DNA of 62,873 nucleotides, the filler included, from Dugesia japonica (Eukaryota), in NCBI GenBank assembly GCA_001938525.1. It is 5 parts of 5 records of this genome, joined end to end, with 100 filler letters (N's around TTAATTAATTAA, not from the genome) between each part and the next. Parts side by side here need not be neighbours in the genome. Positions count along the whole stretch, not along the records: positions 1 to 20,701 come from MQRL01628071.1; 4 more parts are not named here. One strand, 5' to 3'. The notes below the pieces were generated by a model. That model had not been told where the DNA came from. It did not search any database and was given only the letters and a program-made list of their open reading frames with translations. Of this stretch, positions 1,541-36,500 are shown in pieces; the first letter of the stretch is position 1, and each line of letters starts with the position of its first letter. A program made the position numbers and the translations under genes.

Positions 1541-3475
1541 TGTTGGGGTGGAACACCTAGTGAATTAAACAAAACCACATAAGTTCCAGTCTGTAAAGAA
1601 GAATAGTAAGGGCATCACAAGGGCCCGTTAAGAAAGGAAACAGTTCCGATCATAAATCAGATGCTACATATAAATCTTTAAATGAGTAAAAAACTCAGAA
1701 GATTGGCCATGGGAAAATTGGGTGAATAAAAGTGATGCACACCAATCACAGGAATTAAAAAAATTACCAAAATCAATAATAAAAACAAGAAAATCATTAA
1801 TAAAATAACTATCGTAAAAAGAAAAAATATTAATTAATTCAGAAATAAATTAAACCAAAATTAACGAAAAATTCGTTTTNTACGAATAACTTTACCACCA
1901 AAAGACACAGGAGCTGGGCAGAAGAAAATTTGGGAAGGATTTGGATCGGGTCATCGGAATGTTGACACAAGAAACTAGTACCACCATCTGGAGAACCTCC
2001 ACGAGGATGTTAAGATTGGTTCAATAGCATCCTGAAATTTAAAAAAATAAAACAAAGCATTAAGCCTCACCTGATGAGTTAAAAATAACCGCCAATTGGA
2101 ATTCTAAAACTTTGAAAGATTTTTAGAAAATTGGCAGTAGAACCAATCGGAAGCAATAAATACAAATTAAAAATAACCAACGAATACGAAAGAAGTTGGG
2201 GTGCGAAGAAAAATCGTATGAAAGAACCCCTGAAATTAGCAAAAAAGGCATTCATTTTTCAACTTCAACAAATACCAACAGAATTACAAACTTTATCTTA
2301 GGAAATTCATTACAAAAGAAATTGTTTACCACAATAATAATAGCCGAAGTAAGAGTACCAGTTATCGCANATCAATTGAGTAAATCTATTATTTGGATTG
2401 TGAGTTAATTTGAAATTTTTTGAGAAAGCAGAAATTACCTATATTCCGGAAAATTGTTAATTTTCTTCACCGAAACCGTTGCAGAATCTTTTGGAAATTA
2501 TTTTATTAGTAAGCGATATGTTTATATTATAAATAAATATTATAATTTCTAAAATAGTTTCATGTATGTTTTTTAATTTATATAATGTTAATAAGATATT
2601 TATAAATGAAGTTATAAATTTTCCATTTCTATCGATACTAAGTCATGATCATTGATGAGCGACGCTCACTACTNNNNNNNNNNNNNNNNNNNNNNNNNNN
2701 NNNNNNNNNNNNNNNNNNNNNNNTCTTAGGAAATTCATTACAAAAGAAATTGTTTACCACAATAATAATAGCCGAAGTAAGAGTACCAGTTATCGCATAT
2801 CAATTGAGTAAATCTATTATTTGGATTGTGAGTTAATTTGAAATTTTTTGAGAAAGCAGAAATTACCTATATTCCGGAAAATTGTTAATTTTCTTCACCG
2901 AAACCGTTGCAGAATCTTTTGGAAATTATTTTATTAGTAAGCGATATGTTTATATTATAAATAAATATTATAATTTCTAAAATAGTTTCATGTATGTTTT
3001 TTAATTTATATAATGTTAATAAGATATTTATAAATGAAGTTATAAATTTTCCATTTCTATCGATACTAAGTCATGATCATTGATGAGCGACGCTCACTAC
3101 TAATCGGATCAATAAAATAAAGTGAGCCTAGTAAATTAATCTATACCAGAATATCATCACGCATAATTGATCATTTCTCGCACATGCACTGTACAACAAT
3201 TATTGCCGTTGATTAACACTAACATAATGATTTAGTAGTTGGTGGATGATTCATCAAAATAACTACTCAACATAGTGAGGAAATTGAATAATTTTTTGTT
3301 TGTAAAATATTTAACTTTCAGGCACATACATCGTTATTTCCTGATTAGGTGTGTATTGAACATGTCCCTACTAACACACAAACGACCTTCATGGTGCTAG
3401 GAAACAAATAGCGCCCAAATTTAATTTAAATTAAAATCTATTTATTTCTAAATACTTGTAATTTTTTAACTCCTA
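1541..3475 (+). repeat. Putative very long 5' LTR (at least ~1.5 kb after removing the gap duplication; end not defined)
   Basis: Begins TGTTGGGG, has no convincing ORFs and is homologous along its length to the inverted copy at 1-1469. Confidence 0.55.
2296..3101. repeat. ~378-bp near-exact duplication on both sides of an N gap (probable assembly artefact)
   Basis: 2296-2673 is identical, apart from one N, to 2724-3101, with 50 N between them. Confidence 0.85.
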
Positions 3476-3949: not shown

Positions 3950-4162
3950 TTGGTAATATGGATCTGTTTTAGAAATCCTATGTCTGAATTATTTCTATTG
4001 ACCCTTCAATTAATACAACGAGAGCGCGAACAATCACGTAAACGGCAATTAATAGGACATCTCATAGCCCCGTGTCTGGTTATGCATCCCGACGAAACAG
4101 ATTTAATTTGCTTCACCGAGATGATTTCGTTGCCATTGAAAACGGATATGAATGAGAAATGA
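3950..4162 (+). pseudogene. Small Arg-rich ORF, paralog A (QREREQSRKRQL...HPDETDL)
   Basis: Ungapped 49-codon homology to 5933-6079, with substitutions biased to codon position 3. Confidence 0.5.
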
Positions 4163-4823
4163 TAATGAAACTTATTTCGTTGAAATAAAATATAGGATGG
4201 CCTAAAGCTCTAATTTTTAAATTTTATTGTTTATTGATGATTATATTAACCTTTATAATTAAATAAAATCTCTATTNNNNNNNNNNNNNNNNNNNNNNNN
4301 NNNNNNNNNNNNNNNNNNNNNNNNNNNNNNNNNNNNNNNNNNNNNNNNNNNNNNNNNNNNNNNNNNNNNNNNNNNNNNNNNNNNNNNNNNNNNNNNNNNN
4401 NNNNNNNGAGAATCCAAAATTTTGGCGAGCGGCTAAATTTCGAGCAATGGAATGGGCCAGAGCGAAATCACACAACGGCGTTCCAGTATCAACCTCCGGC
4501 CTCACCCCAACTCGTGCAGGCTTTCATCACTAACTTGCTCTGAGGCGTTAGGGAACCCTCTAGTATGGAGGATGCCGAAAGCGCCGCTTCTACCACGGAC
4601 CCCACAACTAATCCGCAGTGACTCTATTGTTTTATGATTAGAATGTAGAAATAAATACGTGTCTTTGTTTAATATTATCTTGCTTCGTTTCCTTCAGGGT
4701 TTTAATAAAGAACATTTTTAATAGTGTGATAAGTATATTTTGCTGTCCTAAAATTGGGAAGGGTTTCGTGTACTTCAGTAACATCGATAATAGTATATTT
4801 AGTAAACATTTACTATTTTGTAG

Positions 4824-5259
4824 TGCATTCCTCTCTGAACAGTCCTTCAGCTCCTACCAAGAAGATAAGAGACACCAGCGAGGGCCAAGAAATAACTTGG
4901 GACCTCTATTGCCTGGCAAAGCGACGCTGAGAGGCAAAGATAGCCATCGCCAAAAGTAAGGTGAGCCGGTATAAAAAGAAATGCCTAGCATTCAAGGCAG
5001 AAGCCGAAGCNNNNNNNNNNNNNNNNNNNNNNNNNNNNNNNNNNNNNNNNNNNNNNNNNNCCTAGCATTCAAGGCAGAAGCCGAAGCTTCACATAAACAG
5101 GAAAGAGTCTGGAAGGCTCAATTAGAATCTTTCCTTGAGATTATCCAGTCCTACCACGACCGAGAGAATAAACTGGTTGAGGATATTCACAAATTGAAAG
5201 CTGCAATGCCCCTCGAACCATTAATGGTCAACAAGGGTACACAGTTTCCGAGGGTTTAA
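4824..5259 (+). pseudogene. Upstream accessory coiled-coil ORF with PSAP motif (one internal stop)
   Basis: After the acceptor-like TTTTGTAG (4823) one frame reads SLNSPSAPTKKIRD...LYCLAKRR*EAKIAIAKSKVSRYKKKCLAFKAEAEASHKQERVWKAQLESFLEIIQSYHDRENKLVEDIHKLK once the gap-flanking duplicate is collapsed. GC content is higher than in the flanks. Confidence 0.45.
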
Positions 5260-5929: not shown

Positions 5930-6080
5930 TTGTGCATCAGTTTCAGATACTCCATGTCGAATATACTCCTATCGACTATTCAATTCATTCAACGAGAGCG
6001 CGAACGATCACGTAAAAGGCAATTAATCAGGCATTCCATAGCTCCCAGTCTAATTAGGCATCCTGACGAAACGGATTTAC
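5930..6080 (+). pseudogene. Small Arg-rich ORF, paralog B (QRERERSRKRQL...HPDETDL)
   Basis: Paralog of 3959-4105; weaker homology extends upstream (about 5650-5930 vs 3660-3950). Confidence 0.5.
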
Positions 6081-6095
6081 AAAAGAGAAAAGAAA

Positions 6096-6608
6096 GTGAA
6101 CTGGAAAATGGTAACCGGAATCTTTCGTTTCCTAACAAAAACAATGGTACTCGACAGCCATTCAAAGGATATCGATAGAGTAAAACGGTTTATCCGTAAG
6201 CTGGGTCAAATAAGAGGCTCGGATAAGGAAGTCGTAATGCAACTCCAACTATTATGCAAAGAGATGAGTAAAAGTAAAAAGAAAATATCTTATTTCAATC
6301 AATTTAAAGAAAGATTTAAGAACCGAGATGATAGCAGTAGCAGCAGTGATGATAACAGAGGAGAAAGCAGTAGATTACCCAGCGCATCCAGTTATAAAAC
6401 CGCCATGGAATGTAAAGCGGAATTCAAAAGGAAACAATATATAAAAACCAGTAAAATGCAACGATTGAAAAACGCGTTGAAATTCGGAGGAAGTGAAAAT
6501 ACACCTGCACAGATGTATTACAACGCATATCCACAACATGGATATGAACCAACAATGAACCAGCCAATGATTCAGTCAATGAACCAACAACCATCACAGA
6601 TATGGTAA
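6096..6608 (+). pseudogene. ORF in the gag position (basic, Ser-rich, Gln/Pro-rich tail); no recognisable capsid or CCHC motif
   Basis: 170-aa ORF directly upstream of the protease; assigned by position only. Confidence 0.35.
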
Positions 6609-6617
6609 CAAGGCCCA

Positions 6618-7090
6618 ATGTACGGCTCCACGTATCTGGGTTCACCACAGTTACTTAACATAGCATTGCTAACGGATAGCAACGTATCACAATTACCAGT
6701 TAACGATAGGAGGACAAACGACCAAAATTTGAAGTCAACTAATAGTCAAATCACAGAGAATGACAAGTTAGAAACACAAACGGTATGTATGATGACTACC
6801 CAGAGAACAAAATTACTACAGAAAAAGATAAAAGTGGACGGAAGATGGGTAACCGGTATTATTGATACTGGAGCAAGTATGTTACTAATCCACAAAAGGA
6901 TGATAGAGGAACACCGTCTACCAATGATAAGAATTACTAAAGGAGATTTCACTACGGTATCCGGAGAAAAAAATATCTTTACTAGGTGAAGCGATATGTA
7001 TAATCGAGAATGATGGAATTTGACTACATCACAAGATACGAATAATGAATGAATTGACTTGATTGTCTACTAGGACTGGACATCATACCA
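6618..7090 (+). pseudogene. Retropepsin-type aspartic protease
   Basis: IKVDGRWVTGIIDTGAS catalytic motif and a C-terminal DCLLGLD motif near 7061-7082 (frameshifted). Confidence 0.85.
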
Positions 7091-8594
7091 ATACTATGTC
7101 CCAACGGGCTATTAAACTTAAGAAAACTATCCCTCCATAATACGACAAACAAAGGAGAACGACTGCAATTGGCGATGCAGGACTATTGCCCATTATTGAA
7201 ATTTAAAACTGGGAAAGCAAATTCGAATGCCGATTGTCTATCAAGAATCGATGGACCGGATGAAGCCAACAATCCACCTGATAATTCTGAAACATTTACG
7301 CTGCGTGATCTGCTCGAAAAGAAAGTGGGAATGGTTTATTTTATATTAGCCGAAAATCCAAATTTTGACGGGATAAAGCCAGCACAAGCGGATGATGAAG
7401 AGATAAGGATCATTACAAAATGCATTGAAAATTACAATCTCGAAAAATTGGAATGCAAACCCAAAATAAAAGAGCTTTTAAAGAAGAATCGAGGTTGTTA
7501 TCCATTATCAACCAAAGGCTGGTTGACAGCTTAAGACGGCAAAAATACTGTGTTGGTCATTCCAAAATCCAGGCGGGACAAACTTTTGCAACAATATCAC
7601 AATGGAGTATTGGAAGGACACATATCCAATAAGAAAACTGAATCGAAACTAAGACAGAAATATTACTGGTCCCACATGACTGAATCGGTTAAAGAATGGA
7701 TCACAAAATGTCAAATATGTGCCGCCAGGAGTGGTACAGAAAAACGAGTGAAAGCCCTATTAAAACCTATCACTGCAGCTAGTACCTGTAGCTCCGATGG
7801 AGATTATAGCTATGAATGTAGTTGGACCATTACCGCCTACATTGCGTGGAAATATCTATATACTAACAATAATGGATTATCTGTCGAAATTCCCGGAAGC
7901 ATTCCCAATGAAAAACCAGAAAACAACCAAAATAGCAGATATACTAGTGAGAAAACTTTTCAGCAGGTATGGCACGCCCAAGAAAATACTAACCGATCAA
8001 GGAAAAAACTTTATGAATAACATATTAGCAGAAATATCGAGTTTCCTCAAAATACACCAATTACGAACATCACTTAATCATCCACAAACGGATGGCCTAA
8101 CGGAACGATTTAATAAAACGTTGGTCAATATATTGTCCAGTTATGCATAAAAGGAACAGAATAATTGGGATAAGCATATTCAGTTGTGTTTATCCGTGTA
8201 TCGAATGCGTATCCNNNNNNNNNNNNNNNNNNNNNNNNNNNNNNNNNNNNNNNNNNNNNNNNNNNNNNNNNNNNNNNNNNNNNNNNNNNNNNNNNNNNNN
8301 NNNNNNNNNNAAGATGAAACCGATTTTGTAGCAAATTTCAAAGAAACTATGCAGAAAATATGAATACAAGCCAAAGAAAATGTGGGATTTTAGCAAGAAA
8401 GCTAGAAAGATTTGCATGATAAAACAGCAGCCCAACATGCATTCAAGAAGGGCGATATAATATTAATCAATTTGCCGAATATTTGTGTCGGTATCACGTC
8501 GAAATTAAAAGAACCATGGCAAGGGCCATATGAGGTGATTGAGGTAACCGAAACTAACCTCAAGGTTCGAAATCTATCACGAAAACCTGTGTAA
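7090..8594 (+). pseudogene. Pol remnant: RNase H C-terminus plus integrase (zinc-binding, catalytic core, GPY/F)
   Basis: RLQLAMQDY..KTGKANSNADCLSR; H-NGVLEG-H...YYW...CQIC; VVGPLP...IMDYLSKF...LTDQGKNF...HPQTDGLTERFN; WQGPYEV. Confidence 0.92.
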
Positions 8595-8604
8595 AAAGCC
8601 TGCA

Positions 8605-10345
8605 ATGACAGACGAAAATACTCAGGCTACAAATATTACGCCAGCTACAACGGAGCCTAGGCGGTCAGGTAGGCCTCGCAAATCTGAAACTATGGAATCC
8701 ACTATCTCACATAGTTACCCTTTACGACTACAACAAGCTATGATGATACTCGGTAAAGCATCAGTACTAGCATTCTCACTAGGTCAGTTGAGTCAGCGCA
8801 TTAAAGAGCTGGGTACCACAACGTTGTACTTCAAAATACCTCGAAGGACCCGTGCGCCAGTGGCAGACAGCAGTTGTATTCATCTTACACAAATGAAATG
8901 TCCTTTCTCACCAACAGTCATTGAAGCAAGTTGTCTTACATGTGTAAGGAAAATCAAAACCATTTTGAAATCGACTTTACGAGCTGTTTCCACCCAAAGA
9001 ATTTGGTTGTTACAATAGGATATCTCTAATACAAAACAATGCAGGAAAATACACGGCGAGCTATCAATTCAAGCACTGTTGTCACAAGACACGATAAATG
9101 CGTTATGCGAACGTTGTATCAGTATTTATAGTGAAACGTTGACAACGGCAATTGAAAACTTCCACCTCATATTACTGGTCTAGGATTGGTTGGTATTACG
9201 GTCACAACCAGTCGATCCTCCACCATGAAGAGGGTTGGAATGATTACTACGAAAAAGAAGTCTCAGCGAAGACGCTGAGTCTGAAGAGAACAGGGAGGGA
9301 GAATTAGTAGAAAAGAATGAAGTCCAGTAGCTGGAAACGATCTTACAACCAGCAAAGGAGGAGGAAATAATAACCGAGTTACAGAAGATAACTCCAATGG
9401 TAAAAAAGCAGCCTTGGATTATGCTGACAGGCAAAGAAAGGCAAAGAGAATAAAAGGCGAACGGGCCTTTGAGGATTATCAGATCAAGGCCGAGAAACAA
9501 AAAGTAGAAGTTGAAGAAAGTACTAAGTCACTAAATAACTCGTTACCCGCCAAAGAATTAAGGCGGTCGAGTAAAGCGTGTATACCTAAAATAATCGACA
9601 CACCGAACTCTAATTTTCTTTTTCAGTCACAATAGACCATATCGATAAATAATAACAGATCACTTACTGCACTACAAAATATTAAAACCATATCTTTTAG
9701 TTCAGATAATCAAATGCGTCGGCAACTTAAAATCGAAGTCATGAACGCCATTATGATATATCCGATCATATGTAGAGGAAACCAGATACCGGCGTCAGAA
9801 GAAAGCTACATCCATATTACACGAATAATATGCCCACTCTCAACAATACAATTAGAAGAAAGCTGTCTCCAATGTATAAAAAACTCAAATTATCTTAAAA
9901 ACCTCATTAAAAGCCATTCACAATCAGCGAACATGGTTATCTAAACGAGAAAATTAGTTCAGAAAAGATTGTGATGGATCATTAATTGAAGCACCGATCC
10001 AGGCACCTATTCGCCAAAATATCATCAAGNATCTATGTCTGCTGTGTACGGATATTTACAGAGACGAATTACTAGCAGCTACTCACGTTTTTCACCGTAC
10101 ATTGGTACAATGGAATTGGATAAGAGTCTACGAACCTTCAAATATCCAATTGCCATGGGGGATGATTGGGTTGCCCATACAAAGAGAATACGATATAAAA
10201 AATGCTGAGGAGCCAGACACAAAAATAGACAAATTAATTCCAAAAGAACCGGAATCAGACAACATCGGGAATGCTGACAAGGAATTACAAAACCTTGTGA
10301 GGATAATGGAAAAGACATTCAATAATCATTGGAATGACTTGGANN
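8605..10345 (+). pseudogene. Tandemly duplicated Cys-rich accessory domain downstream of integrase (two copies)
   Basis: Copy 1 (~8830-9230): IHLTQMKCPFS..EASCLTC..ILKSTLRAVSTQRIWL..IQA..LCERCISIY..FH. Copy 2 (~9750-10165): IHITRIICPLS..EESCLQC..ILKTSLKAIHNQRTWL..IQA..LCLLCTDIY..FH. Confidence 0.7.
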
Positions 10346-10395
10346 NNNNNNNNNNNNNNNNNNNNNNNNNNNNNNNNNNNNNNNNNNNNNNNNNN

Positions 10396-12142
10396 AATAA
10401 TAAAAAGGGAAAGGAGACACAAGAAAATCCACTATCACAGAGAAACACGGGCAGTGTTATATATATATTCGAAGTAATAGTTAAAATGATCTTGTCACTA
10501 TGGGCACTAATCAACACAAGCTGTGATTATGACATTTTAGTGTGGATAATTCTGAAACTCGTCAGAAATCTAGGGAGGGGTTACTCAGCAATAATGATTA
10601 TATACGGAATTATAGGATTAATTTTATTATGATTATCAACGTCAGTCTTAGCAACTCAACAAATGCAGATAATACCTCAGAACGAAATACCTAGTGGACA
10701 AATCATACTAACTACCGTGCTAATAACTTTAAGAAGGATAAGAAGCTAGGAGTGCTGGGCGAATGAAGCTTTACTAACAGAGCATAAAATAGTGGTCGAG
10801 GGTCAAAAACCGCAATAAGGACTATGAGTACTGACGGACGAAACAGGGAAGTAAACATTCAAGAATCATTCGGTCACGAAATAGTAGTCATAAAACCCAC
10901 TATCAAAGGGCATGACGAGACAAAGTTATTATTAGTTTGGAAAGGTTGGATGGCAGAAATATGGTACCGAGGCGATATAACCGTAGAAGGTCAAGAAATG
11001 CAGTTTAACATGAAACATTGGTGGATGGAAACATCACAAGAATTCTAAGGAAAATATCATAAACCTACCAGAACATACGATCAGAAAATGTGGTTTGAAA
11101 TGAGTCGTTTGCTTAACATTCTAATCTACTATATAGCCGATGAAAGTCTCCAAAAAGGGTGGAAAATTATAAGAAAAGGTGGTGAAAGTTTAAAAATCTG
11201 CCAACATAATGAGTACACCTACCATATCGATTTTCGAAAAATATGATAAAGGAAACAACAAACAAAGAAAAAAAAGGATATTAATGGAGCAAAGAAGGAT
11301 AGCCATGTACCGAGGAACATGGTTAAACGTTGTGACTCAGTATATTTTTGGTAAATGGGGACCCCNNNNNNNNNNNNNNNNNNNNNNNNNNNNNNNNNNN
11401 NNNNNNNNNNNNNNNNNNNNNNNNNNNNNNNNNNNNNNNNNNNNNNNNNNNNNNNNNNNNNNNNNNNNNNNNNNNNNNNNNNNNNNNNNNNNNNNNNNNN
11501 NNNNNACGGGAATGAAGAAGTAACAAGCTATAAAAAATCCTTACAAGAATCCGGAGCAAACATGGGGAATTTCAGCTCAGAAATGTGGGAAATAGAATTC
11601 ACCACTGTCATAAACTGGGATAAAATAATAAGGCTAGGTACCCCAAAACCAATCACCAAAGAGATCACCATGACATCTACTACAGAACCCCCAACCACAA
11701 CAAAATGAAGAAATCAACTACAATAATTAACGAAAAAAAAGATTCAAAGAAAACAAATTTCTTAAATAGACTAATGTTAAACTTACACAATTTCAAATCA
11801 AGAGAGAACCAGGTGGCACCATGGGATATGCCCACCATACAAAAAATATCAGTCACAACTCCTCAAAACACAAAAACCGGAACAGATTATACGATAATAA
11901 TCGGAAGTGTCGTCGCTGCAATAACAATAATAGGTGTTGCATACGTATGTCTATGTGGAAGGGCAAAAGCTAAGAAAAAGAAACATACTCGAAGTAGAAG
12001 GGAACGATATTTACCGGTAGCCCCACCAAATTACGAATGGATGCAACCAGAGATAATATCGAACGAACTACCCATGTATCTGCCTAGACCCTATCATGCA
12101 CCGGGGGTAATGACTTGCTTAATAGACATTAGTTCTGTGTAA
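10396..12142 (+). pseudogene. Env-like type I membrane protein (disrupted)
   Basis: Hydrophobic signal-like stretch MIIYGIIGLILL*LSTSVLA (~10594-10653), Trp-rich ectodomain, Thr/Pro-rich stalk (TSTTEPPTTT), TM helix YTIIIGSVVAAITIIGVAYVCLC (11888-11956), basic stop-transfer KAKKKKH and cytoplasmic PPNY. Confidence 0.6.
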
Positions 12143-12233
12143 ATAGTGTAAAGTGTACTAAACTAATAATGATAAACAACTGTATATACATGTAAAAATA
12201 ACTATAGTATTGATTAATTCTTCACATTCAAAA

Positions 12234-12859
12234 ATGAATTATACAAAAAAAGAAAATGAAAATAAATACTCAAGCATGAGTGAAGATGAAGAAACGGATT
12301 CACAAATAGACTCAACAAGTCCAAGTGTGACAAGTCATATAAACAGCAGTCCTGCAAGAAGTCTTACACTAATAAATGACAATCAAAATATTACACAAGT
12401 GACGATACATGAAATATGGAGAAATCATAATGAAGAAATGAAAGAATTATGGAATAGTGTCAAAACACAAACTTTATGGACCCAACAGAGATTGGAAGAA
12501 CTAGAACACAGTCAGATTCAACTATTATAAATCCTAATAAATTCAAAACCCCAAGTATACTGCGAACTAGAATTTAAGAATAAAGTCTTGCAATTACAGA
12601 ATAAAAACCTTTATGCAAAAATCCTTGTGTCGACAACAAATATCGGAAAACAGACGAATGTTGTATACGACGACAGAAAAACAAAATTACGCAATGGACC
12701 TAATAGCCAGGCAACACGATTTAATCTCAAATCAGGAGGGAGAATCAAAATATGTCAGAGGGCTAGTAACCTCACAAATATTAGAGATGGAGACACTCAA
12801 AACCCGGAGTGCTCTTACTCAAGTCAGTTTTGTATAAACTGAAAAGGGAGATACAAAAG
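12234..12859 (+). pseudogene. Ser/acidic-rich then coiled-coil ORF; probable 5' exon of the IAP gene
   Basis: Overlapping ORFs 12210-12530, 12588-12842 and 12613-12837 are linked by a stop and frameshifts. They end at AG|GTATAA (donor at 12860). Confidence 0.45.
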
Positions 12860-12860
12860 G

Positions 12861-12899
<39 letters not shown>

Positions 12900-13016
12900 C
12901 TATATGGGTATTTATATTAAACTAAAAAAACAAATAAAAATAATATATACTTCTAAAAATATTACATAATGTACTATGTTGCTATATAATCAAGAATAAT
13001 TGTTTATATATTGTAG
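12860..13016 (+). other. Putative spliceosomal intron within the retroelement cargo (contains a (TA)n run)
   Basis: AG|GTATAA ... TTGTAG|, extremely AT-rich. Splicing joins LYKLKREIQK to IMEFNMEL in frame. Confidence 0.55.
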
Positions 13017-14203
13017 ATAATGGAATTTAATATGGAATTGACGCTGGAAGATGTTAGATCGATAATGGGCGATTCAGATATCAATCTACACATTATGAGC
13101 CAAGGTCGGGAGGAAATAAAGCAAGTTCCAATAGTCAAAAACATTCCACATTATCGTAGCAATTTCAGTTCACCAGAAAATTTAAACGAAGAACAGTGAA
13201 TTACAGCGTGATGAGAGTTTTTGATGAGAAATACAGAAACGAAAAAATGAGAGCCCTCACGCTACTCAAGTTACCTAATTATCTTCATAGGCTAATCAAT
13301 GATATGGCTAAAACAGGATTCTATTTCTTCGGAACCAGAGATGAACCAGACCGAGTAAAATGTATATATTGTCAAGGAAATTTGTATAAATGGAGGAGGA
13401 ATGATAACCCAAAAAGAGATCACAAGAGATCATTTCCCCCATGCCCATTCTTACTAAATTTGGATGTAAATAATCAGCCAAAAATAATAACCCAAGGTAA
13501 ACAACCAGAAATCGAAAAAATAACTACAGAACACAAAAAGTTGTATTATAAAGTAATAAAAAATTTAGCTGAAGTAACACTACCCGATGATTTGGAATGG
13601 AACATCGAAGCTAGGGAAGAAACATTTAGCGAAACACCAAAGTTATTGGAAAAAGCCATGGAAGGGTTATATATCACCGAACAGACAAACACCAAAGTCA
13701 TAAAATGCACAACATGCAAAAGAGAAACACCAATACTGAAAAACGTGGAGAAACTGCCNAGGAATATATTCCACCAACCAAAGTGTTCAAGATTAAGCCA
13801 AAGTTAGAAAGAAGAGATGTCCGTAACCTCATATAGAATACAATGGAATATGTCAAAAAACAGAATAGAAATGGCCGTCGAATAGCAAGCAGACAGATTA
13901 GCTAAAATACTCGAACTGAATAAAGAAACTAGTATCGAACTAATCGCAAAGACAGTCGCGGAAAAAGGAGTCGAAATGGTAACACCTTTAGAATTGTACC
14001 AACAATCTCTCAATACAATCACTAGACAAGTAAGTTATGAACAGGAATGGGTCCTAATAGATAGTGATTGCATCATTTGCCTCGATGAATCAATCCAAGT
14101 TGTATTTCTTCCATACGGACATTTTAAAATTTAATAAAATTGCACACTTATTTTAAATGAATGCCCAATGTGTAGAAAATTGATTAAGCGCAGAAAATTT
14201 TAA
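13017..14203 (+). pseudogene. Inhibitor of apoptosis (IAP/BIRC-type): BIR, degenerate BIR, linker, C-terminal RING
   Basis: BIR: RALT..MAKTGFYF..DRVKCIYC..LYKW..DNPKRDHKRSFPPCPF. Second BIR-like: AREETF..AMEGLY..KCTTC..HQPKC. RING at 14069-14203: CIICLDESIQVVFLPYGH..C..CPMCRKLI. AATAAA follows the stop. Frameshifts and stops are present. Confidence 0.9.
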
Positions 14204-14302
14204 CAATAAAATGAAAATAAAATATGTCAATAATGTCTATATCTATATATATAAATGTCAATATCATATTATACGTGCTTAATCACTCCCTCTAATTTAG
14301 AA

Positions 14303-14830
14303 ATGAGCAACGAAAACTTAATAACTCACCTTCGAAACAAAGTGCACACCCTCCAAATCCAAAACCAATCTCTCATCATAGTTCAAGAAGCACTAAAATG
14401 GAAATTAGACGCAAAAGAAAATGGTCTCCTAAATCTCCAACTCCAAAATTAAATCAGCGGCTTGAAACTCAAATCGTAAAAGTCCGACACGAACTCACAA
14501 TTAGAGAGCGATCTTGTATCGGTCACAAAAGAATAATGAAAAGAACTCTCGACGAGAACAGAGTTAAACGCCATCAGACAAGCACGTAATTGGAAAAGCA
14601 AATTCGAAGTCGAACCGAAGAGAAAAAAGCTGGAAAATCAGCTGTTAATCGAACAAGAAAACACCCAGATTCTGAGAATAGAGTTGTTCAATACTCAATT
14701 CGAGAAAACTCGCTTGGCAACAGAAAATCATATAATATAGAATTCAGTGTTCATGAATTGCACGTAACTTCCATTTTATTTTAGTGTCTACGAAACAATA
14801 ACCCTAACAATTATATTCGAAAAGATGCAG
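14303..14830 (+). pseudogene. Coiled-coil accessory ORF (frameshifted)
   Basis: MSNENLITHLRNKVHTLQIQNQSL...LNQRLETQIVKVRHEL...KLENQLLIEQENTQILRIEL; heptad-like and preceded by acceptor-like TAATTTAG. Confidence 0.4.
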
Positions 14831-15294
14831 AGCGAAAAGTATTAAGTGATCGGACGACTTAGGGAACTGGAAATGATTCAAAAAACCGTGTCAGTAAGAA
14901 TCGGAAGCTGACATTCTTACATCAAGACATCCAGTTGTATGTTTAATTTCTTCATTAATTTTGAGAATTGATTGTAAATTCAAAGTTGATTTAAACAAAA
15001 ATGAGTCAATATTAAAGATGGGATGTCTAAAAAAGTGACTTATAAAGATGCCAATGATGATGAATACTAAATAAAATAGTAATTAAGAATTAACTTAATT
15101 AAAAGAAATACGCCTAACAGCTTGCCTTTGACATTAATATATTAATTTTATATTGCTGAACAAATAAAAGTAATGCGTAACCTACAACTACGAAAGCAAT
15201 TTTAATAAATTTAGTATTCTGTAATTAAAGAACATAAACATGGTAAAATTGTATTGTCAGTTTAATTTTAAAAATTGAAACAGATAACATTAAA

Positions 15295-20801: not shown

Positions 20802-21540
20802 TGCGATAATGAGAAGATGTATTGTGATAATGAGAACAGGTATTGTGATAATGAGGAGAGCTATTGTGATAATGAATAGAGCTATTGTGATAATGAGAAG
20901 AGGTATTGTGATAATGAGGAGAGGTATTGCAATAATGACGAGAGGTATTGTGATAATGAGGAGAGGTATTGTGATAATGAGAAGAGGTATCGTGATAATG
21001 ACGAGAGGTATTGTGATGAGAAGAAGTATTGTGATAATGAGGAGAGGTATTGTGATAATGAGAACAGGTATAGTGATAAAGAGAACAGGTATTGTGATAA
21101 TGAGGAGAGGTATTGTGATAATGAGGAGAGGTATTGTGATAATGAATAGAGCTATTGTGATGAGAAGAGGTATTGTGATAATGAGAAGAGGTATTGTGAT
21201 AATGAGGAGAGGTATTGTGATAATGAGGAGAGGTATTGTGATAATGAATAGAGGTATTGTGATAATGAGAACAGGTATTGTGTTAATGAGGAGAGGTATT
21301 ACGATAATGAGGAGAGGTATTGTGATTATGAGAACAGGTATTGTGATAATGAGAACAGGTATTGTGATAATGAGAGGTATTATTATAATGAGGAGAGGTA
21401 TTGTGATAATGAGGAGAGGTATTGTGATAATGAATAGAGGTATTGTGATAATGAATAGAGGTATTGTGATAATGAGGAGAGGTATTGTGATAATGAATGG
21501 AGGTATTGTGACAATGAGGAGAGGTATTGTGATAATAAAA
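20802..21540. repeat. 21-bp minisatellite (ATTGTGATAATGAGGAGAGGT)n, about 35 units
   Basis: Directly visible; it produces the MRRGIVI / IITIPLL repeat ORFs. Confidence 0.95.
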
Positions 21541-23329: not shown

Positions 23330-25650
23330 ATACAATGCAAATTTTTGGAGAGAAATTAATAAAAATCAACAAATTCGAAAATGAATCTGAAGATAACACA
23401 TTCTGAGGATGATGGAAAAAATAACGCGTTAAAAGTGTTTAAAGGAATTGATAACCGAAAAACGGTTCAGTTGATCCAGAATTTTGTTGAAATATTCATG
23501 GCGTCAAAGTTTGAAATTGGACAGAATAGAAAAGTGATACATGAAATAAAAGTTAAAGGATATCCAATAGTACAACACTCTAAAAGACAGCTAATGCGTT
23601 TCGAAAAGAAATTTGAAGATATGATTTAACATTTAGTAAATATTGGTGTGATCAGAAAGTGTAATAGTCCTTGGAATTCTTCATTAGTGATTGTATTAAA
23701 ATAGGCGGCTTGATAAAAATGTGCTTTTATTACAGAAAAAGTGTCCTTTCCAATGCCAGACATTTAGTTATTATTAGATTGTTTATCTGACTCGAAAATA
23801 CTTTTATAAATTGATCTGGGCTAAGTCTATTACCAAATGAAGTTGGCGGAAAAGTCAAGTGATGAACTGCTTTTAGTACAAAAGAAGGTCAATGCAGATT
23901 TAACTGAATGCCTTTTGGATGAACCATTTTCTAAAAATTTTGCACGAGTTATTGAAGGAATTAATTTTCAAAGGAGGTGTTGTATATCTGAATGATATTT
24001 TGGTGTTCGGAAAAGTTTTTGAGGATTACGACAAGATGTTGGAAACAGTTTTTTATACGTTCAGCGATTTTGAATTAAAAATATGCCCAAAAATGTAGGT
24101 TTTATCATAAAGAAGTGCTGTTATTGTGACATACAGTGAGTTCAACTGGTATGCTTACAAATTTAGTTAAAATATGCTATTAAGATATGATATTAAGAAT
24201 GTTATAGTTCCAGTATGTTCTTTGAAACTTCATTTTTTATCGTACTAACAAACTATTACACGCGTTTCTTAAAAGGTTATGCAATGATAGCAGCTTTTTA
24301 TATGAAGAGAGATTTAACGTAAGAACAGACCACAAAGCGTTGGTCTTTCTGGAAACTAAAGAAACCAATCTACCCACAATTCCAAACGTGGATGGTGAAT
24401 TTGAGAGAGTATGATTTTAAACTCAAGTTTAGAAAAGGCGAAGAACGCAACAATGCAATTGGGTTGTTGAGGCTAAAGGAGAGTTTTTGTTCACAATACA
24501 GCATAAAACACATAGACGCTAATGGAGAAAAAGTGAGACTAAAACATCTCAATGGAATTCAACATGAGACTGATATATTTACAGTGATTTGACAGTCTCA
24601 GACAGAAGATTCAGAAATACAAAGCTGAGTAGCAATTTTTTGAGACGACGATTTAGATACTGAAAATTGTGAACAAGGAAACTATTGTAATAAACTGAAG
24701 CAAAATTGAAAATAGGGAATTATTTGTTAGTGCTGGAAATAGTAAATAAATCTCTGTTAATGGTTCCTACAAGCATGGTTGATAAAGTGATAAAGGAAAT
24801 TCATGAAGATTTATGTTATCTAGGAAGGCAATTAATTAAAGTATTGACAAATGCGAGATGTGTTCCAAAAGAAAAGTAATACAAAGTCGTACAAAAGAAA
24901 AAATTATACCGTGGATTAGCAAAAATTTCTTAGAACAAATCATAGTGAATATAGCTCAAATGGAACAGACCAAGTCTTGAAAGAAATATAGGGTGGTAAT
25001 TATTGATCGTTTTAGCAAACTAGTCAGTTTATCTGAAGTTTCAACAATGGATGAAGAGACGATTTTTATGATAATCTTGGACAAATGGATATCCTGTTTT
25101 AGTAAACCAAAATCCATTCTGACGGACAGAGGTGAAGTGTTCGAAAGTCAATGTAACACTAATGGTATACAGTCATTTAGTTTCGTGGAACGGTTTATCC
25201 TAACCGTGAGGGACATGATTATGATATCATTGAAAAATAAATGTAATGAGAATGATAAAGAGGCATTATTACCGAAGGAAGAATTCAGTATTAACTCTAC
25301 AATACAAGAGTCATCAATATTCTTTCATTTCAAAATTGTATTTAGTCGGAAGATAAATCCGCATACCAAAGAGTAAACCCTCTTAGGAGGAAGAACAGAC
25401 TGAGAAGAGAGAGAGAGCGACAGAATTTCTATTTGTGGCAGAAAATGTAACATTTTGAGAAAGATAAGCGAAGACAAAGGGAGAGTGTGGATTAGTCCAA
25501 GTATAACCACACAGAAAAAAGAAAATGGTTTGCTTTATGAAGGGACATTTAAATAACGAGGCTTATATCAGCACATCAAGAAGAAATCAAGTTTTTAAAT
25601 GGTTTGAAATTCAGAAGAAAGATGAAAAATGTTTTGAAGGAGGGGAGAGA
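23330..25650 (+). mobile_element. Degenerate Ty3/Gypsy pol (RT, RNase H, integrase) ending in a polypurine tract
   Basis: CNSPWNS, VYLNDIL, VRTDHKAL, VIIDRFSK, LTDRG motifs; GAAGGAGGGGAGAGA near 25636. Confidence 0.85.
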
Positions 25651-28482: not shown

Positions 28483-30620
28483 TAACACAAAATTTCAAAT
28501 CTTCAAATCTTCCAAAAAACTATGTTTTTAAAAGCTGAATATTTAAACAAACATTTTAAATATTTTTACAAATTCTTGAAATATTTTAAAACATTTTCTT
28601 TAAAATTTAAATTGCCATTTTCAATTTTTAATACTTACACCATCCTCGATTAAAATAATTTTTTAAGCTCCTTTCTAGCCATTTTCCCTTTGTATTTCGT
28701 ATACGATATCTTCTCTCATGTATCTTTCATTGTCTTGTGTTCTAGTTTAATCAATACTTCGTCTCCCACTTGAAATTGTTTTTTGTAGGAGTTTCTTCCA
28801 TTAACTCTTTGTCATCTTTTTGGCTGTCAAACCATTATTCTCTGTGAATTCTCTTACTGAATACTAATTCTGCTGGTGATATCCCAAATGTCTTTTGCCT
28901 TCTCGCATTCATCGTGTATTCAATCTCCGGTATCCCGTTACTCCAATCCTTTATTCTATCTTCATCTGCGGCTGCGTTAATAGTCTCTAATTGTGCGGAA
29001 TTGTCTCTCTATAATTCCGTTTGTATTGTGATGGTACTTGAAAAGTGTATTTCCATATTCATCGATTCCATCAAATTCTTGAAGTTTTTCGATTCAAATG
29101 TCTTACCGCTATCTACGCGAACTTCTATTGGCGCTCCAAATCTCAAGATCCATTTTTCCATTATCACTTTTTTAATCGTCTCATCATCTTGCTTGCTGAT
29201 CGCAGTTAGGCTTACGTATCGACTGTATTGGTCTATTATTCCACATAAATATCTTTGTCTGTTCAATGTCTCTAGAAAAGGCTTACATATGTCCGTATAT
29301 ATCTTTTCAAATGGACAATTTGCTCTTAATTTTACTGTTGGCTTTTTTGTTGCCACCGTATTAACTTTTTTCTTTTAGCACGCTTCACACTATCTTATCA
29401 CTTCTGTGATTGTCTTCTTCAGTTCTTCCATTTCGCAGTTGCTGATTATATAGCTGATAATTTTCTCTGTCCCTGCATGTATTAAAAATGTATGTATCTC
29501 TTTGATCATTGATATTCTTTTCTCTTTTGGAATACAAATTTTCCCATCACTTGTTTTCACTTCATGCTGTTACTTCCACATAATTCTTCTAGGGCTCTTG
29601 ATTTCTTTGAATAATTCTTGATGAATCTCCTGTCATAATTTCATATTCCAAGAAAGCTTCTCAGGTTCTTTACGCATTTGGGTTTCTCAAAATTTTTGAT
29701 AGCTTTGATTTTCATTGGATCTGTTCAAATTCCTTCTTTATCTATTATGTGGCCAAGAAATTTTACTTCTTTGCGTAATAGATGACATTTTTCTGGATTC
29801 ACTCGCAACCCTGCCGTTTGGATCCGCTCTAATACCTTACCCAGAGTTATATAATGTTCTTTTAGTTCTTCTGAGAATATCATTATGTCATCCATATACA
29901 TCATTACTCATCTAGACCGTCCAATAATTTTGTCATTAGTTCTAGGAATGTTCCTGGGGCTGCTGCTATGCCGAATGGCATTCTTGTGAAGCAAAATTGA
30001 CCATTTTTGTCGAAAAGGTTGTTTTCTCTTCTGACGCTTTTTCTAACGGTACCTGGTAATACGCGTTTCCCAAGTCTATGGAACTGAAATATTTGGCTCC
30101 ATACAAATTGTCTAACATTTATTCTACGTTTGGCATCAGGAAGGCCTGTCGTTCCGTAACTGTATTTAGTTTTCTGAAGTCCAAGCAAAGTCTCACATCC
30201 CTTCTTTCTTTCTTCCAGACGCATATCAGTGGTGTGTTTCACTGCGAATTACATTTTCTTATAATAGCGTCCACGAAATATTTTATGGCTGTATCTATTT
30301 TTTCTTCTAGATTTATGAGTTGTCTCCAAGGCTTCGTATTTATTGAGTTACCCTTTGTCACTATCTTGTGTTCCGCTAACGTTGTGCATCCGACACCCTA
30401 GTTATCTGCCATGAATACTCCTCAATGTTTTACTATTACTTTTTCCGGTTTTTCGTCTCGTTTTGTCATCAAAATTTTCAAAGCTCTCTATTCTCTTTCA
30501 GCATCTTCGATTTTACGACCAAACTTTGAATCTATGTTGCAGATTCACTGTTCATCTTCATAATCTTTTTTTTCTTTCGTTAAACGGTATCCAAACTGGC
30601 GTTGCATACTTATTCCTCCG
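28483..30620 (-). mobile_element. Degenerate, internally deleted Ty3/Gypsy element with the start of a 3' LTR at 28639
   Basis: RMPFGIAAAPGTF, PFEKIYTDIC, GIIDQYSRY, RVDSGKTF; purine tract GAGGATGG then TGTAAG on the minus strand. Confidence 0.85.
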
Positions 30621-32799: not shown

Positions 32800-35700
32800 C
32801 GTTTTGAGTGTTTCCGAGGAAGTAATGAATTTTGAAATAGTAACTCAAATAAAAGGGAGCAGGAAAGGCTGGTCACCTGTCTAATTGACGAAGAACTATT
32901 GACTAAATTTGCTGAAACATTTGGAAAAATAGAAGGTTTCTAAGGACGATTAAGACGGGTATTTAGTAAAGAAAGAGATGTCATTCCAGACATGAAAGAC
33001 ATGATATATATCAGAAGAAGAGACGAGGGTATCAATAATTATATCAAGAAAGTAGAAGATTTTGTGGAAAAACTCTTTGCAAATAAGGAATTTACAAAGA
33101 AAAAGGTAAGAACTAGGTTGCTGGTACAATCTGCAGGAAATAAAAGGGTAGAAGATGAAGCCATTTTACGTAAGATACAAAAAGTTGAAGAAATCAAAGA
33201 GACTTTGAAACCTTTAGATAAAGTGAGAAATAATGAAGACACAGATAATATTATGAGTTTCATAGCAGCTGTGAAAAGAGATAGAAAAAATGTAGAGGTC
33301 CTGAGACGAGACGACCCGAAATACAAAATTTTGAAACGCGACAAAGTGTAATACCTAAATTTGGAAACGTACAACTAGATAGACATAGAAACGGGAAAAT
33401 GACGTTGGTGTGTTGAATTGCAATAAAGTCGTTCACATGAGATAGGAATGCCAGTTTAATTCAAGGATCAAGTGTTGGATATGTTATCGAGTTGGTCATA
33501 CTAGCAAAAGATGTCCAAAGAAAAAACCTATTTAGAGGTTTCAATGTGTACAGGGAGGCCATATCATTAGAGAATGTTAAGAAAGAAACAATAAAAGAAC
33601 AGTTATGGAAGATATAAAACAAGAAGAAATGGCAATTATTATCTTGAAAAAGAGACAAGAAGGTTAAATAATTATAACGAGAGAGGTTATAATAGATATG
33701 AATAGTTGAATGCAACAGATGAGATGATAAACCGGGGAGACGAAGAGGAAACCGGAAGTGTTGAAGGGAATATCAGTGAGGTCTCCTATAGAAGACAAGT
33801 TAGTCGAAACCATATACTAAAAGTTAGTTCTATCGTATTTCCTCGGGAAATTGAGCGCTGGGAGAATGCAGAGAAGATTGGAGAGAAAATGCTCAGGTTT
33901 TTATGTAGATAGTCATTCAAGGAGAATGCAGACATAGGGACAGTAATGATGGTAGAAGCAAATTGCAAAGTGAAAATTGAATATAAAAAATTTCATGGCA
34001 GACCCAGTGTGGATATACAAGTTGATGAGAAACGGATGAACTGTTTATTAGATAGAATAAATGTACCTAGCGCGGAAGGTTGGATGAAATTGGAGAGTAA
34101 ACAATTGTAGGAATGCGAGATGAAATTGCGGTGAGCAAATAACAGCATACTTGAAACAATGGAGAAAGTAAGATTGAATGTACATGTTGGCAAAAAGAAA
34201 GAAGAAATTGTTTTCATGGTGAGAAAACAAGTGGTTCCAAAAATGATTGGAGGTAAAAAATTTCTGAATATTTTAAGATTTCGCTTAGAGCAAAGTAAAG
34301 AAGAGAGACGGAAGTTCGAAAGGAAAGAGTATATTTGTAATTTGGAGGCGAAGTTTAGAAAAAAAATTGATCTGGGTGAACGTTGGGACAAGGCAAAAAG
34401 TGCCATTGATTGTAGAGATGACAAGCGGTTGATGGAAAAAAATATATTAAATAGAGAGGTTTTTAAGGCGAATAAATTGGATGTGGGCAAGACACATTTA
34501 ATTAAAGCTACAATCAATACAAAAGGGAGTTCTATTAATATAAAGCCATATCGACAACCGATAAATTTGGAGGATAAAATAGATGAAGCAATTAGAAATC
34601 TTTTCAAAAACGATATCATTAGGAGATGTAATTCGCCATGGAATACTACCATGGTGTGCGCGTGGAAAAAAGACAAAAACGATATTAGGTTATGTTTGGA
34701 CTTTAGAAGATTGAAGGAAATTACAGAGAGACAGGCACTTCCTATGCTAAATGTGGAAGAAATGTTGGACACATTGAATGGGACAATTTATTTTACTTCG
34801 ATTGACCTTGGAAATGCCTATTATCAGGGGGAGTTTGATAAACAGTCGCAGGGAAAAATCGCATTTTCCACAAAGCAAGGATAATACTGCTTCAAGAGAA
34901 TTCCGTTTGAAATAGCTGCAGATCCAGGAACATTTCAGGAGATGATTAATGAATTAATCAAGATAATTTGTGGAGCAATGGTATATTTGGATGATATTTT
35001 GATTTTCTCTAAATTAAAAGAAGAGCATTATCAGATTATTGGTCAATTGTTGGATAGGATTTAAGCAGCAGACTTGAGGGTGAATCCAGAAAAATGTACA
35101 TTTATGAAGGAGGAAATTAAATTTTTTGGTCATATAATCAGCAAGAAGGAAATTCAAACAGACCCAATAAAAGTAGAGGTCATTAGATCATTTGGAGAAC
35201 CTAAGTGCGTACATAAAATGCGCATTTTTTAAGGAATATGTAATTATTATAGAAAATTCATTAAGGACTATTTGACTAAGGCGAGGAAGCTTGAATAACT
35301 ATGTAATGGACCTACTAATACAAAATTAGTATAGTCATCTGAACTGACAGAGATTTTCAAAGGATTGAAGACGGTAATTGCGTATAGATCCCATAAATTG
35401 ACGTCTCATGAATTAGGATACTGCACAACTAGGAAAGAATTGTTAGCAGTATATTATTTTTGCTTACATTTTAAACACTACTTGTACGTTAGACGTTTCA
35501 CATTGAGAACAGATCATAAAGCGATTACTTTTATGTTAAAAACGAAGAAACCAGTGACGAGTGAATTTCAAACATGGATCAATTTTCTTAGAAGCTTAGA
35601 TTTTAACCTAGAATACAGAAAAGGGATATTATATAGAAACGCGGATGGTTTGCGCAGACTAGTGTGTGATAGATTTACACAATGTCAAACGGAGCACGAG

Positions 35701-36500
35701 GGAGCAAAGATAGAGATTCCTTTAGAATCCTGATATTTACGAACAATAAAGATCAACACTATGAAGTAACTGAAAAAGGTTTGACGGAAATAATGAAAGC
35801 TTGTCTTAGAATTAATCCAAAAAAATGTCAATTTCTTCAGAGCAAAATCAGATTTGTTGAACACATAATTAGCAGAGATGGTGTCAAAAACTGATCCATT
35901 TAAAATATAAGCAATAGGAATATTAGGAAAACCTAACTGTGTGAAGAAGCTGCGAAAGATTTTAGGAATATGTAATTATTACAAGAAGTTGGTAGAAAAT
36001 TACGCAAGAAAGTCAAGGATCTTAGAGCAATTGTGTAGCGGACCAAGCAACAAGAAGTTAGAATACACAGATGAAAAAAACGATACTATTGAGGTTCTGA
36101 AAAAATCTCTATTTACTACACCAATATTGTGTTTTCCAGATTTAAATAGAAAATTTATTTAGATGCCAGTTTTGATACAATTGGAGAAGCATCATCACAG
36201 AGAGATAAAGAAGGAATAGAAAGAGTTGTTGCATATAGATCACACTCAATGGCGATTCATGAAAAGGGATATTACATCACTAGAAAGGAATTATTCGCTG
36301 TTTGTTATTTCTGCATGCACTTCAAACATTACTTGTACACGAGAAGATTTACTCTTATAACAGACCAAAAAACTCTAACTTTCATGATGACGACGAAGAA
36401 ACCAATGACGTTAGAAGTTCAAACATGGATTATAAGTAGTCTAGAAATGATTTTGGAATATAGAAAATGAATGCAACATGGTAATACAGATATGTTATTA
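32800..36500 (+). mobile_element. Degenerate Ty3/Gypsy gag-pro-RT-RNase H with a second, diverged RT-thumb/RNase H block
   Basis: CCHC knuckles (CWICYRVGHTSKRC), CNSPWN, LCLDFR, IDLGNAYYQ, VYLDDIL, RTDHKA; the NPKKC..RKEL..TD block recurs at 35730-36500. Confidence 0.9.

Follow-up and report, generated by a model that had tools for sequence, protein, structure and literature searches.

Organization of the locus

The window, that is, the whole 62,873-nucleotide stretch of Dugesia japonica DNA analysed here, is AT-rich, contains many N gaps and holds several decayed retroelements, and of the 32 other long ORFs scanned, 8 contain a domain of RT, RNase H or integrase. The membrane gene lies in a plus-strand block (~6000-15000) with an A-skew of +0.19 to +0.35 over 6001-15000, flanking windows being mostly ~0. 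Judged by its domains and gene order, this block appears to be a decayed, RT-less, multi-gene Ty3/gypsy-like element. We infer its limits because no LTRs were found: no repeat pair flanks 6000-15000, and N gaps may hide parts. A 147-base direct repeat (3959-4105 / 5933-6079, 78-79% identical), whose second copy ends just 5' of the gag-position ORF, is a possible LTR remnant. Near 4423 there is a TGG-starting stretch that we take to be PBS-like. No tRNA or Rfam match was obtained, and blastn, tblastn and tblastx detected no second copy of the element region in the window.

The block opens with a gag-position ORF (6105-6990, plus strand, two internal stops) that runs into an aspartic protease, recognized by Pfam as Asp_protease_2 within 6609-6986 (E=1.1e-5). 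This ORF shows no Gag family in Pfam, no zinc knuckle and, in three frames, no late-domain motif; N gaps may conceal parts of it, and its true content may be deleted, as RT is. Further upstream, a short plus-strand ORF at 4760-5250, coiled-coil by eye, bears the window's only PS/TAP motif (PSAP at 4844); it might belong to the element and provide its late domain. Behind the protease, at 7139-8594 (plus strand), follow a possible RNase H tail and an integrase with H2C2 zinc finger, core and C-terminal domain, for which Pfam returned Integrase_H2C2 (E=1.8e-17), rve (E=1.2e-12) and MLVIN_C (E=0.0018) within 7535-8591. The putative RNase H tail is read from a motif that is not significant, its score being reached by 177 of 1000 shuffles; ~300 bases separate it from the protease, which leads into it almost directly at 6990-7200 (plus strand). 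The Ty3/gypsy order is thus present in the protease before and the integrase with H2C2 and DDE core after (Pfam), and absent in the RT plus RNase H expected between them, where no YxDD occurs. RT may have been deleted from this copy, or the family may be non-autonomous.

Directly 3' of the integrase tail lies the Cys-rich accessory unit A1 (8600-9190, plus strand), a paralog of A2, which with its extension occupies 9321-10343 (plus strand) and is in frame with the hydrophobic segments of the membrane gene across an N gap; A2, its extension and the membrane protein may all have been encoded by one long ORF. The two units form a tandem duplication (8548-9190 and 9468-10122) at 25-40% identity, with E-values down to 8e-9. 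A1 matched no family in Pfam or NCBIfam, gave no usable Atlas match and was predicted to fold with a pLDDT of 44.5, and the piece 10033-10341, from A2 and its extension, had no homolog among 41 candidates.

Beyond the membrane gene, an AT-rich spacer precedes a separate ORF at 12225-12842 (plus strand, one stop) of no Pfam or NCBIfam family. It is followed by a broken IAP gene at 13020-14200 (plus strand) encoding one BIR (Pfam E=8e-19) and a C-terminal RING (E=0.0017, weak), and by a broken ORF at 14303-14740 (plus strand), coiled-coil by eye and again matching nothing in Pfam or NCBIfam. These later ORFs are separated by long AT-rich spacers (12140-12279, 12830-13039 and 14170-14279), and the placement of 12225-12842 and 14303-14740 each behind a TA-rich spacer suggests internal promoters or splicing. 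The IAP has an intact BIR + RING relative of 483 aa, P0003, the sole one among 369 candidates, with 42% identity over 196 aa and 34% over 360 aa on 13181-14194; by its sequence, P0003 suggests that related elements exist. A gypsy-linked IAP 3' of the integrase departs from the layout of the planarian element Burro and may equal the membrane gene in interest.

Elsewhere in the window, a 21-base tandem array (20805-21536) comprises 35 copies and is open in frames on both strands, and other retroelements have left decayed pieces of RT, RNase H and integrase at 24981-25376, 29009-29374, 35335-36470, 42505-44173 and 60778-61200; the closest integrase fragment (43904-44245) has only ~28% identity to that of the element. 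Two nearly identical direct copies of 378 bases on either side of an N gap (2296-2673 / 2724-3101) are likely an assembly artefact, and an inverted repeat of ~500 bases, 67% identical, lies at 749-1249 / 1748-2246.

Integrity and extent of the membrane gene

The original prediction read 10396-12142 as an env-position membrane protein. The position downstream of a gypsy-type integrase is confirmed; a single ORF is not, since the region is broken by three in-frame stops (ending at 10632, 10749 and 11048), about three frame changes (near 10820, 11240 and 11700) and an unsequenced gap of 140 bases, or ~47 residues (11366-11505). Nor is a start at 10396 confirmed: an N gap ends there, the frame can be followed upstream as far as 9958, and there is no AT-rich spacer ahead of 10396. 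The start may be either of two in-frame ATGs, at 10486 or 10594, or the protein may have been part of a longer ORF that included A1/A2 and was cleaved at internal signal sequences.

A codon-phase model trained on pol and the IAP, correct in 37 of 40 control windows, detects a continuous coding frame from one end of the region to the other, with the weakest signal at 11200-11365. Coding signal extends over 8560-12140 uninterrupted by any AT-rich spacer, and the low-GC windows inside the region (10580, 11230 and 11700) are short and lie within coding-like sequence. The pieces probably formed one gene, as the coding frame is unbroken and long AT-rich spacers flank the later ORFs only. Stop density in the membrane gene is similar to that in pol and the IAP, so the whole copy is dead. 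The last piece (11624-12142) is stop-free up to the stop codon at 12140-12142.

Architecture of the encoded protein

By hydropathy, the layout is that of a signal peptide, an ectodomain and a single C-terminal TM helix. The predicted signal-like segment stands in part: the last hydrophobic segment (10591-10650) resembles a signal peptide, but it contains a stop and is preceded by two others, the three together occupying 10456-10650 on the plus strand (KD19 2.24 and 2.31; middle segment KD11 1.8). Type I topology holds by hydropathy and by the positive-inside charge after the TM helix.

The ectodomain core (10651-11627, plus strand) consists of several stop-free pieces around the gap 11366-11505. 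It is Trp-rich, as predicted: the 239 core residues include 12 W, where the element as a whole has 1.0% (P ~8e-6). It is also Cys-poor, with 2 C in those 239 residues and none in the stalk pieces, ~47 residues being unsequenced. From the signal-like segment to the TM helix the ectodomain would span ~414 residues if the pieces join, which is shorter than gB. No clear furin site plus fusion peptide had been seen; a furin-like RKKR does occur, at 11266, with ~206 residues between it and the TM helix. It sits in an A-run and is within chance, RxK/RR occurring 12 times in 8702 positions; the piece that contains it holds no hydrophobic stretch (maximum KD15 0.31), and the next 140 bases are unsequenced.

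The stalk (11628-11893, plus strand) is only partly mucin-like, because S+T of 35-40% is confined to two 20-residue windows. These short Thr-rich patches flank a predicted helix at ~11753-11806, with S+T at 5-15% between them, and a frame break lies near 11700. No internal repeat was detected in the ectodomain among 28 piece pairs at the protein level. An ungapped DNA diagonal (11202-11291 / 11698-11787, 50 of 90 bases) is borderline, since one locally shuffled region in 100 equalled it; its two ends are near frame breaks, and it has no counterpart at the protein level.

The TM segment (11894-11956, plus strand) agrees closely with expectation. One TM helix at 11894-11950 (KD19 2.53) is supported by a predicted helix with pLDDT of 72-92 around it, and it runs into CLC, with Cys at 11948 and 11954 that we take to be candidate palmitoylation sites. 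The cytoplasmic tail (11957-12142, plus strand) comprises 61 residues, is predicted to be disordered and begins with the anticipated polybasic stretch, 10 K/R in 16 residues at 11960-12007. A YxxPhi motif, a type of sorting signal, follows at 12008. PPNY is found exactly at 12023-12034 and LPRPY at 12080-12094, and between them LPMY at 12068 constitutes a second PY motif, of the LPxY variant, that had been overlooked. A single-sequence fold of the stalk-TM-tail piece gave two helices (stalk and TM) and a disordered tail (pLDDT 60, pTM 0.25).

Several counts bear on whether these tail features could be accidental. Among the window's 121,777 six-frame positions there are three PPxY motifs, and PPNYEWM is the only PPxYxxPhi. 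When the tail, which is Pro/Tyr-rich, was shuffled 100,000 times, PPxY appeared in 5.9% of shuffles, LPxY in 3.3% and both in 0.14%; the values expected for the PY motifs from the element background are 0.005 and 0.010. The combination of TM helix, basic stretch and PY motif was found in 1 of the 191 stop-free pieces of at least 60 aa (window, six frames): 26 of the 191 have a TM-like window, and only the TM-tail piece adds a basic stretch or a PY motif. The TM-tail features are real and unlikely to be due to chance, in a test chosen after the motifs had been seen.

Searches for relatives

The ectodomain piece 10788-11243, read through its stop, matched none of 95 candidates in a search covering proteins of 267-2000 aa. 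Pfam yielded nothing at the curated cut-off for six membrane-gene pieces, short and decayed pieces limiting its sensitivity, and NCBIfam gave 0 of 16 at cut-off; two weak Pfam matches, POPDC and CR_prot_dom_plant, were rejected. PDB sequences returned no matches. A search of the TM-tail piece against 1.84 billion representatives produced one match, a Labeo rohita Siglec (E=7e-5), which was rejected as a relative, the similarity being confined to the TM helix. Atlas matches to the same piece were to generic single-pass proteins (TMEM154, syndecan, opalin and HCMV UL132), the best at 0.89, below the lead level of 0.9. Homolog searches are weak for short decayed pieces such as these. The candidate PY motifs are accordingly read from a single sequence, that of one dead, gapped copy. 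The literature consulted, mostly non-subscription main texts seen in part, described neither a gypsy env-position protein with PY motifs nor an IAP 3' of a gypsy integrase.

Proposed role and competing explanations

PY motifs (L/PPxY) bind the WW domains of NEDD4-family ligases (PMC5849660; PMC2824488). The suggestion that the protein is a NEDD4 adaptor gains support from the second PY motif, given how seldom tail shuffles contain both; WW binding itself would follow from known PY biology. Late domains have mostly been described in Gag and other structural proteins (PMC8402826; PMC8278194), as had been stated, but in the parts of the literature drawn on here a PY motif on a viral membrane protein is less unusual than that suggests (PMC5849660; PMC4452911). 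The tail may have served NEDD4 recruitment for endosomal/ESCRT sorting, in the manner of Commissureless or herpes UL42 rather than of a known fusogen. With a RING E3 carried besides the PY-tailed protein, the element would engage ubiquitin pathways twice.

The reading that we place first, although we give it somewhat less than an even chance, is an element-encoded type I membrane protein that served as an attachment and egress factor, recruiting NEDD4/ESCRT to the budding membrane. The locus would be what is left, after pseudogenisation, of a single accessory gene or of the C-terminal portion of some longer ORF processed by signal peptidase. Its type I product would have had ~410 residues in the ectodomain, a single TM helix and 61 residues in the tail. 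PPNY and LPMY would have bound WW domains of host NEDD4-family ligases; ubiquitination, together with YxxPhi, would have routed the protein to endosomes or multivesicular bodies via ESCRT, carrying along cargo held by the ectodomain or the basic juxtamembrane region. It would not have been a class I/III fusogen; at the membrane where budding takes place it would have provided the late-domain function in trans, as NS3 of bluetongue virus does. This reading ranks first because the PPRY of NS3, a membrane protein, is required for release (PMC4452911), because PPxY budding can proceed without ubiquitination of Gag itself, trans-acting proteins being ubiquitinated instead (PMC2958808), and because the gag-position ORF has no late motif. 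The membrane gene also shares strand, A-skew and a similar stop density with pol and the IAP. Against it stand the failure to find an intact copy or a homolog in which PY conservation could be seen, the absence of LTRs that would mark the limits of the element, the appearance of PPxY alone in 5.9% of tail shuffles, the PSAP at 4844 as a possible late domain of the element, the possible deletion of the gag-position ORF and the weakly determined frame at 11200-11365. Moreover, a PY tail need not mean egress, since herpes PY adaptors lowered retroviral vector yield (PMC5849660).

That last point leads to a NEDD4 adaptor unrelated to particles, which deserves serious weight although we consider it unlikely: the ectodomain or TM helix would bind a host receptor that the PY tail sends to lysosomes, forming with the neighbouring IAP a survival or immune-evasion kit. 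Commissureless routes Robo1 to lysosomes through the same motif pair in the same order, PPCY then LPSY (PMC12101832); PY-dependent receptor down-regulation is known, herpes U24 and m42 acting on CD3/CD45 (PMC5849660); and additional ORFs behind pol are frequently not env (PMC5408684). The viral adaptors in PMC5849660, however, are tail-anchored, have N-terminal PY motifs and lack a signal peptide, and an ectodomain of ~410 residues suggests an outward-facing role. A true fusogenic envelope, whether a highly diverged and decayed F or gB or a member of a new class, in which cleavage at RKKR would part the surface from the TM subunit, appears decidedly improbable. It would suit the env position, the distance of RKKR from the TM helix, the unsequenced ~47 residues after the RKKR piece and the several N-terminal hydrophobic segments, as gB-type envelopes can have two flanking TM domains (PMC13524379); yet 2 Cys in 239 core residues contrast with the conserved disulfide sets of F and gB, the RKKR piece reaches a KD15 of only 0.31, RxK/RR is common and this one sits in an A-run, and none of six pieces reached the Pfam cut-off. 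We also regard as improbable a third kind of envelope in a multi-gene Ty3/gypsy family, with no relation to F, gB or sORF2/FAST, whose ectodomain has a new fold and whose tail has taken over the budding late domain from Gag, accompanied by an IAP of the element's own.

Two further explanations question the unity of the locus. There is a slim chance that the pieces, which lie in three frames with a gap between, were never one gene and that the TM-tail is a stand-alone sORF2/FAST-like or adaptor protein, the upstream pieces coming from other ORFs. FAST proteins likewise have a polybasic region behind the TM helix (bioRxiv 2025.03.14.642691), but the coding signal over 8560-12140 lacks the long spacers that separate the later ORFs, at least 63 residues of open, coding-like sequence lead up to the TM helix in its frame, compared with ~30 in sORF2/FAST, and that frame has no MGxxxS/T start. 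We give little credence to the block 8600-14800 being another mobile element, a DNA virus fragment or captured host cDNA beside an unrelated gypsy pol. No LTR pair encloses it, the ORFs after 12142 are split by TA-rich spacers as independent transcription units would be, and IAPs also occur in WSSV-like repeats of shrimp, that is, in repeated endogenous DNA-virus-like sequence (PMC3124438). On the other hand, the integrase continues into A1 without a spacer, strand, skew and decay are uniform, and no named host or viral gene matches beyond the TM-only similarity to the fish Siglec.

Comparison with known systems

The position, composition, motifs and decay described above are observed in one dead, gapped copy for which no conserved relative was found. 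The protein may have aided the element's exit from cells or the removal of host surface proteins, and confirmation by intact relatives would add to the known ways in which retroelements leave or manipulate cells. Ty3/gypsy envelope surveys use F/gB homology, and the screen for sORF2 retains only tiny proteins that are myristoylated (PMC13524379; bioRxiv 2025.03.14.642691); because of these filters, neither would pick up a membrane protein that is large, poor in Cys and PY-tailed.

In F-type envelopes the furin site and the fusion peptide are conserved, in gB-type ones the cysteine bridges (PMC13524379; PMC5408684). The present protein resembles errantivirus env (PMC13524379) in its position after pol in a Ty3/gypsy-like element, its signal-like segment, its ectodomain and its one C-terminal TM helix; it differs in being Cys-poor and without family match, in the two PY motifs of its tail and in the further genes, including an IAP, behind it. 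Assignment to the errantivirus F-type is disfavoured by the lack of a conserved Cys set (2 C in 239 core residues) and by the absence of any match to F/gypsy env profiles at the Pfam cut-off (0 of 6 short, decayed pieces). The gB-type is disfavoured by the Cys count, the gB ectodomain having five domains with conserved cysteine bridges (PMC13524379). The earlier judgement that this does not look like an F-type env therefore stands on the features tested: the protein is Cys-poor, has no family match and shows no fusion peptide in the sequenced part. Its sequence does not place it in any env family.

The sORF2-like proteins of the MDG1 group lie 5' of gag, measure 63-107 aa with ectodomains of ~30 aa and are often myristoylated; sORF2/FAST proteins are defined by an ectodomain of 10-50 aa, a total of 60-210 aa and an N-terminal MGxxxS/T (bioRxiv 2025.03.14.642691). 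Like these and reovirus FAST, the present protein is a retroelement-encoded single-pass protein with a juxtamembrane polybasic region after its TM helix, but it would reach ~500 aa if the pieces join, and size, ectodomain length and start speak against sORF2/FAST identity. It shares with Drosophila Commissureless a TM helix and a cytoplasmic tail bearing PPxY and then LPxY; Commissureless, by contrast, is a host gene without sequence match, and its motifs are 9 residues apart as against 15 here.

Herpes UL56, UL42 and U24 are viral membrane NEDD4 adaptors with PY motifs (PMC5849660), cytoplasmic as are PPNY (12023) and LPMY (12068) after the TM helix; unlike them, the present protein is type I, positive-inside after the TM helix and not tail-anchored, and no homology was found. 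Bluetongue NS3 likewise bears a PY motif on a viral membrane protein, but belongs to a non-enveloped RNA virus and showed no homology. Bdelloid Vesta ORF3 offers another env-position TM ORF without detectable env homology; its proteins, of 210-230 aa, occur in another layout, and the passages of PMC5408684 seen do not mention PY motifs.

In Burro, a planarian giant gypsy element, a polyprotein of 4,873 aa includes both a BIR and an F-like env, placed after gag and ahead of the protease (PMC6431247), and the Burro1 IAP is known through a citing passage in PMC13465017. That arrangement, with BIR and env in one polyprotein 5' of the protease, was rejected for the present element, in which the order is PR, IN, membrane gene, IAP and the IAP is a separate ORF; the two were compared by published description. 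Both are gypsy-like elements that combine an env-like membrane region with a BIR/RING IAP and may contain long in-frame fusions. If intact relatives confirm it, the present element would show that gypsy elements with an IAP come in another layout than that of Burro.
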